Source of the DNA: an archaeon
GTDB taxonomy: Archaea > Iainarchaeota > Iainarchaeia > Iainarchaeales > Iainarchaeaceae
DNA length: 27,350 bases
NCBI GenBank assembly: GCA_035289485.1
Contig: DATDXA010000047.1
Location: forward strand, 1 to 27,350
Reading direction: 5' to 3'
The position numbers were made by a program. Positions within the stretch are counted from its first letter, which is position 1. The number at the start of each line of letters is the position of its first letter. Of the stretch, positions 12,001-15,000 are shown piece after piece.

Positions 12001-15000
12001 AGAGTAGTATAGCTTGGTTAGTATCTACGCTTGGGGTGTGTAGGACCCCGGTTCAAATCCGGGCTCTCCCATTCCTTTTTCTCACGCGCCGCTGCCTATA
12101 TACAGCACCGCCAATATGCCGAGCGTATTTAGGGTATATGAAATCAGGAAGAACGACCTGTCGTTTATGGAAGTTGATGCCGCAAGTAGTGTCACCCCTA
12201 TTTCATCCGGCAGGGGAGATGCAACGATTATAGCGCCTAATGCCGGAAGCACAAGCGACATGAGCCTTTGGGGTATAAGCGAGATAATTTTTATGACCGC
12301 CCATTCCTTGGCAAATGTATCAAGCTCGTCCGAAAACGACTGCCTGATTATCTTGTAAATCACAAAATCCCCGAGGAACGCCCCAAAGCCCGCTATTGCC
12401 GCCGCAATGAAAATGTTCTGCGATTTTGCAAGTACCAGCAATATGGCTGTTGCAGGCCCTGCCGTGAAGCCGTACACATACATCATTCCCGCAACGAATG
12501 TCCCGATATATCCTGTATTGGCAAGGAATTCGCGCAGCGGCTGCATTGCGCTGGCGCTGACAATTAGATATGCCGCAACGAAAGTGGCCGCCAATGTCAG
12601 AAGCTTTGGGTATTTCACCCATTTCGGGGGATAGAGCGCCATGGTTACCAGTTGCCTCTTAGAGATTAAAAGGTTTTTGCGAAAGCAAACGCTCAATGAA
12701 ATTCTGAATACCTTCTGTGGAGCCCTGCAATGGCTTCACTGAATGCCCGTTTGTCATTTTGTGTCATCTTGTAGCCGGAACCGGATGCAAACCTTTCAGA
12801 GCCACGGATAATGCGATTATTTTCGTCCACTTCAAACACCACTGGTATTTTTCCATACAGTGCAATAATGTCCACTATAAAAAATTTCTCCCCGCCAAAC
12901 CTTATTTTGAGTTCTGGTGAAGGATGGTAAAAGCCCCTGTTGCTTTCCATTATTTTTATTGCATCCTTTGGAAGCGCAACTTCCATTGGATTGGCAAAAG
13001 CATGTGCAAGGGCGTGTTTTCGTGCCTCTGAAGGGCCGTGTAATGGGCGTTTTTTTGCGGGAGTTTTCTGTTTTGATGGTTTTACATCGCCGGTCAAAAT
13101 CCGTGCGCCTGCAACTTTTGCGGGATTTAGTATGTTGATTGGGTCTGCAAGATTCATATGCGGATTTCCTGCTATCCTTTTTGCAGCGGGTTTTGCTCTT
13201 CTTTTCATTGAACCTCTCCGAATCAGCCTCATGCCAATATTACGCTTCTGTGTTTTTTATGCTTTCCCCAAAGCCGATTTTCCAAAGGCACAATTAGCCT
13301 GCGAAATCTTTAAGAAAAAATCGCCACTTCAGCCCAAAAACCCCTCGCACCGGCACCGAACCCCGACATTGTTTAAAAAGCGCCGCGGTGTGGAAAAATT
13401 ACATGGGTTTCGAATTAGTTTCGCCTTTCAGGCCGGCAGGGGGCCAGCCGCAGGCAATTGAAAAGCTATCCGCGGGCTATTCTAAAAATGCGCGCCAGAC
13501 CTTGCTGGGAATTACGGGATCTGGCAAAACTTTCGTAATGGCAAACCTTATCCAAAAGGTCCAAAAGCCAACCCTTGTGCTCGCGCACAACAAAACCCTT
13601 GCAGCACAGCTCTACACCGAGTTCAAGGAACTATTCCCCAAAAACAGGGTCGAGTACTTCATTTCCTATTACGATTATTACCAGCCGGAGAGCTATATCC
13701 CTACCTCGGATTTGTACATCGAAAAAGAGGCTACGGTAAATGAGCAAATTGAAAAGATGCGCCTTCACGCTGTTGCAAGCCTAGTTTCCCGTGATGATGT
13801 TATTGTTGTCGCCTCGATTTCATGCATTTATGGCCTGGGAAACCCTGAGGATTTTTCAAACATGTCAATTGTTGTGCAAAAAGGAAAGGAAACAACGCGC
13901 TCAAAAATCATTGCAGGGCTTATTGAAATTCAGTATGAGCGAAACGACCAGGCGCTTGAACCGGGGAAATTTCGCGTGCGCGGCGACACCATTGATGTAA
14001 TCCCGGCGTACGAGGAAAATATTTTCAGATTGGAGCTCGAAGGGAATAAGGTTGCAAAGATTTCTGAAATACATCCAATCACTGCGGACACCGTTTCAGT
14101 TCTTGATGGGCTGCGGCTCTTTCCTGCAAAGCAATTCGTTGTGCCGCAGGAGAAGCAGAAGAGCGCAATCAATTCAATAAAAGCAGAACTCGAGCAGCAC
14201 CTCCCAACGCTCGGGCCGCTTGAAGCGGAGAGGCTTTCTAAGAGAGTAAAGTACGATGTTGAAATGATTCAGGAAATGGGCTATTGCAACGGAATAGAGA
14301 ATTATTCTCGCCACTTCGACGGGCGTGCACCCGGAAAGCCGCCTTATGTTCTTCTCGATTATTTCCCAAAGGATTTTTTGCTGATTGTTGATGAATCCCA
14401 CCAGACAATTCCGCAGTCGCGCGCGATGTACAACGGGGATTATGCGCGCAAGAAAAACCTTGTGGATTTTGGCTTCAGGCTCCCATCCGCGTTTGATAAC
14501 CGCCCCTTAAAATTTGATGAATTTGAAAAATATTTCAATCACGTGCTCTTTGTTTCCGCAACTCCAGCCGAGTATGAACTAAAACTCTCAGGGCAGATTG
14601 TGGAGCTCATAATCCGCCCAACAGGGCTTCTTGACCCGCTCGTTGAAGTGCGCCCTATTAAGAGCCAAATTCCTGATATGCTCTCTGAAATTGCAAAAGT
14701 GGTTGCGCGCGGCGAGCGCGTGCTTGTAACAACTCTTACAAAGCGCATGGCAGAAGACCTCACAGACTTTCTCTCAAAGGAGAATGTGAAGGTTCGTTAT
14801 ATGCACTCCGAAATTGAGAGCCTTGAGAGGATTGAACTCATCAGGCAGCTCCGTTCCGGAGAATTTGATGTTCTCGTTGGGATAAATCTTCTGCGCGAAG
14901 GCCTTGACCTTCCTGAAGTGAGCCTGATTTGCATTCTCGATGCGGATAAAGAAGGTTTTTTGCGCGATGAAAGAAGCCTTATCCAAACCATTGGGCGTGC

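Follow-up and report, generated by a model that had tools for sequence, protein, structure and literature searches.

A conserved 17-nt promoter-upstream element as the putative regulator-binding site of a genome-maintenance regulon in Candidatus Iainarchaeum and related lineages

The coordination of DNA-repair genes in Archaea is a long-standing question. To our knowledge, Archaea have no LexA, and the one archaeal damage regulon that we know to be well studied, that of the Sulfolobales, comprises mostly pili and DNA import rather than repair enzymes. In Sulfolobus, the damage set is dominated by tfb3, the ups pili and the ced DNA import system. Comparable regulons defined by a cis-element are found in bacteria, namely, the SOS response with its LexA box, the RDRM/DdrO system of Deinococcus, and the mycobacterial PafBC/RecA-NDp system; in the LexA (SOS) regulons, repair genes are mixed with toxin-antitoxin and mobile-element genes.

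As described in passages of PMC9738581 and PMC6101594, the damage response of the Sulfolobales involves the binding of Orc1-2 to the hexanucleotide ANTTTC ("DDRE"), with TFB3 as a coactivator. With regard to promoter architecture, the relevant passages of PMC5512572 state that the typical binding site of an archaeal activator is upstream of the TFB recognition element (BRE) and that archaeal repressors are usually located over the core promoter or downstream of it. Upstream activator sites described in parts of PMC5512572 and PMC5937170 include the EarA boxes of the fla promoter, the Sulfolobus ara-box, and the TFB-RF1-dependent promoters, and for the origin recognition boxes bound by Orc1/Cdc6 in Pyrococcus, a section of PMC1904270 gives the mini-ORB TTCCAGTGGAACT.

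The locus considered here lies in a window of 27,350 nucleotides, that is, the whole stretch of DNA that was analysed (contig DATDXA010000047.1 of assembly GCA_035289485.1). Its host family consists of tiny groundwater archaea, Candidatus Iainarchaeum, belonging to the DPANN. The organism is uncultured, and among the sequencing runs listed as containing this DNA, seven are DNA runs and none is an RNA run. As the first-pass annotation had indicated, an exact copy of the 17-nt element GCACCGGCACCGAACCC is present on the forward strand in front of uvrB, at positions 13347 to 13363 (sequence read and genome scan); the chance expectation for a match with up to three mismatches is 0.05 (100 shuffles of the window). 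The element is made of two tandem GCAnnG hexamers and a following AACCC. On the same strand, it is separated by an unconserved 8-nt spacer (13364 to 13371; no more than about 0.1 bit per position in the logo), where the BRE is expected, from the TATA box TTTAAAAA (13372 to 13379), which starts 8 nt past the element. Downstream, uvrB (13403 to 15382, with Pfam UvrB_inter, UvrB, and UVR domains and its N terminus aligned with those of relatives), uvrA (15372 to 18269, overlapping the end of uvrB), and uvrC (18266 to 19882, overlapping the end of uvrA), the latter two also recognized by Pfam, form one operon on the forward strand. The uvrB ATG is found 39 nt past the element and 23 nt past the TATA box, so that a leaderless or near-leaderless mRNA is predicted.

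Genome-wide, GCACCGGCACCGAACCC has 7 exact copies, 16 copies with at most one mismatch, 19 with at most two, and 24 with at most three. At the two-mismatch limit, 8 copies lie on the forward strand and 11 on the reverse strand, whereas the reversed pattern has 0; both figures given previously are thereby reproduced, as is the count of 14 for CACCGGCACCGAA, which is the commonest of the non-low-complexity 13-mers occurring five times or more (196 under the present filter, 229 in the first-pass annotation). Likewise, CACCGGCANNGA has 25 sites versus 0 for the reversed pattern. We also recovered the reported 12 of 19 sites in which TTTAAA, TTTATA, TTTTAA, or TATAAA starts 8 to 12 nt downstream, an arrangement present in 112 of 20,000 random windows. 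The element has a fixed direction relative to TATA, a TATA-like hexamer starting at +8 to +12 in 74 of 118 sites and on the opposite side in 5 of 118. An ATG follows 37 to 40 nt downstream at many sites; counted from the start codon, the element covers approximately positions −56 to −40, in genes that would mostly be leaderless.

When 28 sites are compared all against all by blastn, similarity among them is confined to about −30 to +35. The logo of 117 sites, whose flanks are uninformative, gives the family consensus yS-GCACCGGCA-MY-GAACCC-Y. The two central bases are genome specific (CC in 16 of 17 sites of genome G000, AT in 7 of 9 sites of genome G003), and this also holds at the orthologous radA promoters, which is the pattern expected for sites that follow a protein recognizing these bases. 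An extra upstream hairpin of 20 to 30 nt is common to subgroups of sites. Of 114 sites, 20 have a stem of at least 6 bp immediately 5' of the motif, versus 4 to 9 of 114 in control windows; since the hairpins at the radA promoters come after the upstream gene, they are probably terminators, and since most sites are devoid of one, they are not required. Rfam searches of nine loci (E ≤ 0.1) returned no family match except two tRNAs.

The genes previously listed downstream of the element in the present genome are supported by Pfam, including UvrB-UvrA-UvrC, RadA, Hef, NurA..HerA, DUF4258-DUF2283-NreA, a DHH-CID RecJ-like protein, RHH-60aa-Hel308, the LAGLIDADG genes, the PIN modules, and DUF7718 with the HVO_A0114 HTH protein. 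A tally by hand of 101 sites in nine relatives assigned 24 to replication, recombination, or repair genes, 13 to homing endonucleases, 11 to toxin-antitoxin-like genes, 5 to a protein of about 490 amino acids, 4 to DUF7718/HVO_A0114 pairs, 3 to restriction-modification genes, and 41 to other or unknown genes; genes of unknown function lie behind about 40% of the sites. Conserved members at the core of the set are radA, nurA(-herA), mcm, hef, the hel308 operon, the RecJ/GAN-type nuclease, the approximately 490-aa protein, and a candidate small RNA (sRNA; C38:11234-11300), which is conserved and adjoins the orc1/cdc6-rfcL operon. The 490-aa protein is itself conserved and of no known family, searches of Pfam, NCBIfam, PDB sequences, and the Atlas all being negative. 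The lineage-variable members include uvrBAC and nreA. Moreover, the element has been acquired by selfish and defence genes, i.e., LAGLIDADG and HNH endonucleases, PIN/MazF toxin-antitoxin pairs, and restriction-modification genes. In G000, eight free-standing LAGLIDADG genes lie behind a copy, and all six of those read in sequence retain acidic residues in their LAGLIDADG-like motifs.

The motif had been described as confined to one genus, which is contradicted by the occurrence of GCACCGGCA-NN-GAACCC in 18 of the 22 other genomes of the family and by the forms found in sister lineages; in genomes of other families, matches were found in 13 of 173, mostly single. At the radA promoter, 20 of 23 genomes carry the element with at most four mismatches, and the other three show recognisable variants at the same spot. 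Counting the 5' half of the element with at most one mismatch, a version in the same place precedes nurA in 19 of 22 genomes, mcm in 16 of 22, and hef in 7 of 15, bearing in mind that related genomes are not independent samples, and most of the remaining promoters of these three genes display variants such as CAGTGGCAA. In the sister lineages, GCACCGGAA-N14-19-TTTAWA occurs 4 to 11 times per genome (control, 0) and precedes MCM, NurA, HerA, RecJ-like, and helicase genes, and one variant, before radA, is GCAGTGGAAATCCACCC. The central proposal of the first-pass annotation, that one cis-element places free-standing homing-endonuclease genes in one promoter class with operons for recombination and repair, is supported, the element being kept at orthologous promoters throughout the family.

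The uvrB promoter carries an exact copy in one of six genomes and a degenerate one in two of six. It had been claimed that the congeners have no motif upstream of uvrB; indeed, none of the five uvrB-bearing relatives (four of them congeners) has it with at most two mismatches, but a degenerate copy persists at the corresponding position in G003 (four mismatches) and G006 (three mismatches). From this comparison, uvrBAC is a marginal, peripheral member acquired in the present lineage, and the horizontally spread uvrBAC operon of G000 has gained a perfect copy. A use of the motif by viruses was also considered: IMG/VR yielded at least 120 single matches, and among the 80 of these loci examined, none had a TATA at the right spacing, which indicates that the viral matches are due to chance.

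We regard it as fairly probable, at roughly 60%, that the element is bound by a transcription regulator that recognizes it by its sequence, and that it would thereby define a genome-maintenance regulon in Candidatus Iainarchaeum and related lineages. Observed directly are the motif with its constant orientation and spacing, the gene content, and the conservation of the motif at orthologous promoters; the mode of activation and the trigger are what we infer from them. In particular, the regulator protein would bind directly upstream of the BRE/TATA core promoter, a location that fits an activator-type site, and, judging from this position, the bound factor would most likely activate transcription by aiding the recruitment of TFB and TBP. 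The trigger would most likely be DNA damage or replication stress. The label "DNA-damage (SOS-like)" given previously is drawn only from the identity of the member genes, and since these include mcm, the RecJ/GAN-type nuclease, and the sRNA adjacent to orc1/cdc6-rfcL, a replication-stress or cell-cycle trigger would fit equally well.

It is possible, if somewhat doubtful, that the regulon follows a programme coupled to replication or the cell cycle, like the eukaryotic G1/S programme, or to the growth phase, instead of responding to damage. The same three conserved members point in this direction, as does the marginal membership of uvrBAC. However, no motif was found at the core replisome genes PolB, PCNA (two genes), ligase, and RFC-S, nor at the intein-bearing Orc1 or Rad50; this makes the member set neither "all repair" nor "all replication", and the absence from the replisome genes and from Orc1 argues against such a programme. 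The same can be said of radA, nurA-herA, hef, and hel308, which are recombination and fork-repair genes, and of the perfect copy gained by the horizontally spread uvrBAC.

A less probable explanation retains the same site and regulon but takes the bound protein as a repressor like the bacterial LexA or DdrO, whose inactivation after damage would turn the genes on. The TATA boxes lie close to the consensus, and the BRE region of the only six motif promoters compared does not look weaker than that of 118 others in this genome, whose BRE signal is weak overall; these promoters need not depend on an activator and could be strong unaided, leaving room for a repressor. Furthermore, the mix of repair, toxin-antitoxin, and mobile-element genes resembles that of the SOS regulons. 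Against a repressor, the site is asymmetric, and it ends 8 to 12 nt before the TATA box without ever overlapping either this box or the start site, unlike the usual archaeal repressor sites mentioned above. Finally, that the repeat is a mobile promoter cassette, a MITE-like element, or a LAGLIDADG target site instead of a host regulatory site seems very improbable, since, despite the eight LAGLIDADG genes with their retained acidic residues and the site subgroups with the extra hairpin, the sites have no terminal repeats and no similarity beyond about −30 to +35, their spacing is fixed at orthologous promoters throughout the family, and an endonuclease cutting the word would be expected to cut about 20 promoters of its own genome.

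Returning to the binding site of a genome-maintenance regulator, several proteins can be considered as its ligand. The HTH gene at C5:517-1191 had been named as a motif-targeted candidate, but no motif with up to four mismatches is present within C5:1-1600. The phyletic pattern of HVO_A0114 (PF25212) is uninformative, as this family also matches every one of the 14 control genomes and, within the order, 176 of 196 genomes. Candidate DNA-binding proteins of G000 are the HVO_A0114-type wHTH protein at C38:1790-2143 with its DUF7718 partner, the RHH protein at C31:58432-58776, the tandem-wHTH protein at C52:4363-4899, the TrmB-type protein at positions 10236 to 11009 of the window, and the Orc1/Cdc6 paralog at C38:9992-11128. 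The present genome has two Orc1/Cdc6 paralogs, and in 15 of 20 genomes, a motif copy is found 39 to 265 nt upstream of the C38-type paralog; this copy precedes the conserved sRNA candidate or inserted selfish genes and always points away from the Orc1/Cdc6 gene, making the paralog only a weak candidate. It is nevertheless tempting to hypothesize, though we hold it rather unlikely, that regulator and site have coevolved across the order (GCACCGGCA in the present family; GCACCGGAA, GCAGTGGAA, and others in the sisters), and that a single switch, responding to damage or replication stress, controls the core machinery for recombination and fork restart (radA, nurA-herA, hef, hel308, RecJ/GAN, mcm), the sRNA, the selfish nucleases, and the toxin-antitoxin and restriction-modification modules; in analogy to Orc1-2 of Sulfolobus, the second Orc1/Cdc6 paralog might act as the regulator. 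If this is true, Archaea would have a functional counterpart of the SOS response, exploited by selfish elements that need host recombination.

We found no description of the element, or of such a regulon in Iainarchaeota/Diapherotrites, in the literature searched (open-access papers and preprints). Across a DPANN family, one sharply defined promoter word, kept in the same place, is common to the recombinase, the nuclease-helicase pair of end resection, helicases and nucleases of fork repair, and the replicative helicase. Homing depends on the recombination machinery of the host, and homing endonucleases as well as toxin-antitoxin genes use the promoter class of that machinery. The question of coordinated repair in Archaea thereby becomes a concrete one, namely, which protein binds a 17-bp probe.

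Compared with the known systems, the mini-ORB as given in the section of PMC1904270 cited above shares CAGTGGAA only with the sister-lineage variants (GCAGTGGAAATCCACCC before radA), a resemblance that may be due to chance, whereas the family form GCACCGGCA matches it poorly; we saw no ORB-like clusters, with inverted copies surrounding an AT-rich stretch, beside either orc1 gene. As in the Sulfolobales, an archaeal promoter element is common to a damage-linked gene set, with two Orc1/Cdc6 paralogs in the genome and a dedicated regulator, here a proposed one. However, different from the 6-nt ANTTTC, as reported in that part of PMC9738581, the present word GCACCGGCA-NN-GAACCC spans 17 to 20 nt, its members are core recombination and repair genes, and no second TFB of the TFB3 type was found, PF00382 matching one gene only (on contig C14, with both cyclin repeats) in a genome that is 90% complete. 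As in the bacterial regulons, one cis-element joins a recA/radA-type recombinase, uvr genes, helicases, toxin-antitoxin genes, and mobile-element genes, but here within the archaeal transcription machinery. Moreover, unlike the palindromic LexA-type operator over the core promoter, the consensus of the 117 sites is asymmetric, its direction to TATA is fixed, and the element ends upstream of the TATA box at the spacing noted above. In architecture, the element resembles the EarA, ara-box, and TFB-RF1 sites, as described in those parts of the literature, in lying immediately upstream of the BRE/TATA with a fixed direction and short tandem 6-bp units (GCAnnG GCAnnG here); those sites control single operons, whereas the present element marks approximately 20 to 28 promoters per genome and is conserved across the family.

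The 17-nt word upstream of uvrBAC is a real and conserved promoter element with a fixed direction. In a DPANN lineage, the Candidatus Iainarchaeum family, it defines a regulon for genome maintenance that selfish genes have joined. In the window, which is contig C47 of the genome under study (1.16 Mb, 64 contigs, 90% complete), the sequence readout places the element GCACCGGCACCGAACCC at 13347 to 13363 on the forward strand, the TATA box TTTAAAAA 8 bases past it (13372 to 13379), and the ATG of uvrB another 23 bases downstream (13403), with uvrA and uvrC following and gene ends overlapping. 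Genome-wide, the 17-mer occurs in 7 exact copies, 16 with at most one mismatch, and 19 with at most two, versus 0 matches of the reversed 17-mer used as a control, and the 13-mer CACCGGCACCGAA (14 copies) ranks first among the non-low-complexity 13-mers. The first-pass annotation had thus rightly described a non-random word, and its association with TATA hexamers was likewise reproduced: one of the four hexamers considered there starts 8 to 12 nt downstream at 12 of the 19 sites versus 0.56% of 20,000 random windows. Relaxing the 3' half (CACCGGCANNGA) gave 25 sites versus 0 reversed, adding the promoters of mcm (C51:230), of a gene with an acylphosphatase domain (C5:39255), and of two further LAGLIDADG genes (C43:13474 and C43:14402).

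A logo of 117 sites, 17 from the genome under study and 100 from nine relatives, shows the conserved block yS-GCACCGGCA-MY-GAACCC-Y, made up, on one reading, of two GCAnnG hexamers in tandem and then AACCC, with near-zero information further upstream and in the 8 nt preceding the TATA box; in an all-against-all blastn comparison of 28 sites, similarity was restricted to about -30 to +35. A TATA-like hexamer starts at +8 to +12 (peak at +8) in 74 of 118 sites and on the opposite side in 5 of 118, an asymmetry that makes the element directional. Furthermore, the start codon lies 37 to 40 nt past the element at many sites, which fits leaderless mRNAs and would locate the element around -56 to -40, immediately next to the BRE. 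The exception is radA, whose conserved leader of about 60 nt (C43:38374-38445, reverse strand, L007/L135; loci L136 to L157) features the family-wide blocks AGCATT .. CCAATGGG .. GCCAAAGG and might add another level of regulation. On the other side, GC-rich hairpins within 30 nt upstream end 0 to 4 nt before the element at many sites (e.g., C27:280-300, C4:10278-10300, and C14:15704-15725); stems of at least 6 bp occur at 20/114 sites versus 4 to 9/114 control windows and, in this genome, form two sequence subfamilies. Since those at the radA promoters come after the upstream gene, they are probably terminators or insulators.

The genes behind the 17 sites with at most one mismatch to the degenerate form (the family consensus with two free central bases) were typed with Pfam and NCBIfam. 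Seven sites precede recombination or repair genes, namely, uvrBAC, radA, hef, nurA (with herA downstream), the nreA operon, an archaeal RecJ-family nuclease, and an RHH-60aa-hel308 operon. Homing-endonuclease-type genes follow four sites, three with a LAGLIDADG Pfam match and one (C27:301) that lacks a Pfam match, aligns with an NCBIfam model in its intein region, and presents LAGLIDADG-like motifs. PIN modules lie behind three sites, a DUF7718/HVO_A0114 pair behind one, and a familyless protein of ~490 aa behind another, with one site lacking a clear ORF downstream; weaker sites precede mcm and four further LAGLIDADG genes. Nothing motif-like occurs from -250 to +60 at PolB, the two PCNA genes, ligase, RFC-S, Rad50, the intein-bearing Orc1, or TFB. 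The conserved ~490-aa protein (C4:2-1495, reverse strand, L009; relatives L041, L064, L086, L113, and L120), which runs off the contig here, has the motif in 6 genomes and gave no match in Pfam, NCBIfam, PDB sequences, or Atlas.

The element had been considered confined to one genus, a view that no longer stands: the degenerate form (at most one mismatch) is found in 18 of the 22 other family genomes (1 to 23 sites each; reversed control, 0), and a related word occurs in sister lineages. In other families of the order, 13 of 173 genomes contain the degenerate form, mostly as single matches. Starting from the motif, 151 ORFs downstream of 101 distinct sites from nine relatives were scanned and tallied by hand: 24 sites lie before genes for replication, recombination, or repair (RadA, 7; NurA, 5; Hef, 4; Hel308 type, 3; MCM, 3; RecJ-like, 1; exonuclease with PIF1 helicase, 1), 13 homing endonucleases, 11 PIN/MazF/nucleotidyltransferase modules, 3 DNA methylase or restriction genes, 5 the ~490-aa protein, 4 DUF7718/HVO_A0114 pairs, 4 other named genes, and 37 unknown genes.

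In the independent direction, promoters were inspected starting from family orthologues. The radA gene is present in 23/23 family genomes, and in 20 of them the motif (at most four mismatches) lies 8 to 9 nt before TTTATAAA, and variants of the GCACTGGCA or GTGGCA type occupy this position in the other three; apart from this, the intergenic sequence around the motif cannot be aligned. The 5' half of the motif (at most one mismatch) lies 37 to 40 nt before the nurA ATG in 19/22 genomes, and by the same 5'-half criterion the motif is present at the promoters of mcm in 16/22 and of hef in 7/15, with variants such as AGACCGGCAAT or GCAGTGGCA at the hef promoters of six more. Beyond the family, the RadA-linked loci of named Iainarchaeum records show GCACCGGAA..., CCACCGGCA..., or GCAGTGGAAATCCACCC at an unchanged distance from the TATA box, and nothing comparable was found at those of Micrarchaeota and Aenigmatarchaeota relatives. 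Five sister genomes each contain GCACCGGAA-N14-19-TTTAWA 4 to 11 times (control, 0), upstream of MCM (2), NurA (2), HerA, a RecJ-like gene, helicases, a DUF7718/HVO_A0114 pair, and a LAGLIDADG gene; it precedes RadA in 5/5, but these genomes were selected by that promoter.

By comparison, uvrB was found in only 6/23 family genomes, with the motif exact in the genome under study alone, present as a degenerate copy at the corresponding position in G003 and G006, and absent upstream of uvrB in G001, G002, and G018. This distribution identifies the uvrBAC locus as a recent recruit, as opposed to the old core of radA, nurA, mcm, and hef. The bacterial-type excision-repair operon itself (window 13403-19882; loci L125 to L129) is patchy in the family, consistent with horizontal acquisition.

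The membership (recombinase, end resection, fork-repair helicases and nucleases, mcm, and a RecJ/GAN-type nuclease) points to DNA damage or replication stress as the probable trigger, as does the exact copy that the patchy uvrBAC operon has gained in this genome; a programme coupled to replication or to the cell cycle is an almost equally good fit. As to the mode of action, the location directly upstream of BRE/TATA, where archaeal activators typically bind (PMC5512572), suggests an activator-type site, to which a putative regulator would bind. Repression instead of activation is a live rival, kept in play by the near-consensus TATA boxes of these promoters and by a BRE weakness that could not be demonstrated. 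The central two bases are CC in 16/17 sites of the genome under study and 16/23 in G005, and AT in 7/9 sites in G003, 5/7 in G004, and 6/9 in G006, a split repeated at orthologous radA promoters. We read these genome-specific bases as sites following the preference of one predicted binding protein; gene conversion between promoters may also lie behind them.

Six of the eight free-standing LAGLIDADG proteins of the genome under study were readable, and all six keep acidic residues in LAGLIDADG-like motifs, four in both motifs. Some of these genes are syntenic between species, such as the HTH-LAGLIDADG gene before metRS in the genome under study and in G002. Because the spread of such genes depends on recombinational repair, it makes sense for them to use a promoter class in common with the recombination genes of the host, which supports the earlier idea that they hooked their expression onto the regulon. 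The element as their cleavage target is dismissed, since about 20 host promoters would be cut. Between two motif-driven LAGLIDADG genes lies a 150-nt tRNA match (C43:14221-14370; L133:1422-1571), probably containing an intron, and the second motif copy of this pair begins about 30 nt past it. Besides these free-standing genes, inteins with LAGLIDADG domains interrupt several members or neighbours of the regulon: herA (C4:4424-7822), mcm (C51:284-3817), and one orc1 (C31:61088-63424) here, and radA in G005 (L035) and G006 (L074).

Among possible regulators, a TFB3-like route is unlikely, as the genome has one TFB gene only, and the HVO_A0114-type HTH is too widespread for its distribution to be informative. 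The analogy of Sulfolobus Orc1-2 (PMC9738581) makes Orc1 a candidate, but a weak one. Of two Orc1/Cdc6 paralogs, the C38 type heads an orc1-rfcL operon, and 39 to 265 nt upstream of it a motif copy, always pointing away from the gene, is present in 15/20 genomes. In 11 of these 15, it precedes a conserved 65- to 80-nt sequence beginning at the predicted start site, a candidate sRNA (C38:11234-11300, about L240:2206-2272, forward strand; loci L242, L244, L246 to L251, L253, L255, and L258) divergent from orc1/cdc6-rfcL; this neighbouring candidate gene would explain why the motif lies next to orc1. The sequence, single-copy in the genome under study, consists of GGCUCAUUGGG followed by a 9-bp stem GAGUUAAGGG/CCCUUAACUC that encloses a conserved CUGCUUCU loop, and matched no Rfam family; the stem hardly varies between genomes, so that the hairpin is only putative. 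The orc1 promoter's own conserved block CCACTGCAAYCC abuts TTTTTAA in 6/13 genomes (C38:11129-11175; L246, L247, L249, L253, and L254), and in the genome under study, G009, and G013 this block and the motif, in inverted orientation, adjoin back-to-back (TGCCGGTGC-GGCACTGC) as a near-palindrome.

Among open-access papers and preprints, searched for the word, for promoters or regulons of DPANN/Iainarchaeota, and for damage-response motifs of archaeal promoters, we found no description of the element. The regulatory logic is like that of SOS-like regulons and the architecture like that of archaeal upstream activator sites. The nearest archaeal precedent, the Sulfolobales Orc1-2/DDRE/TFB3 system, differs in motif, factors, and gene content. 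The element is assigned to none of these three families.
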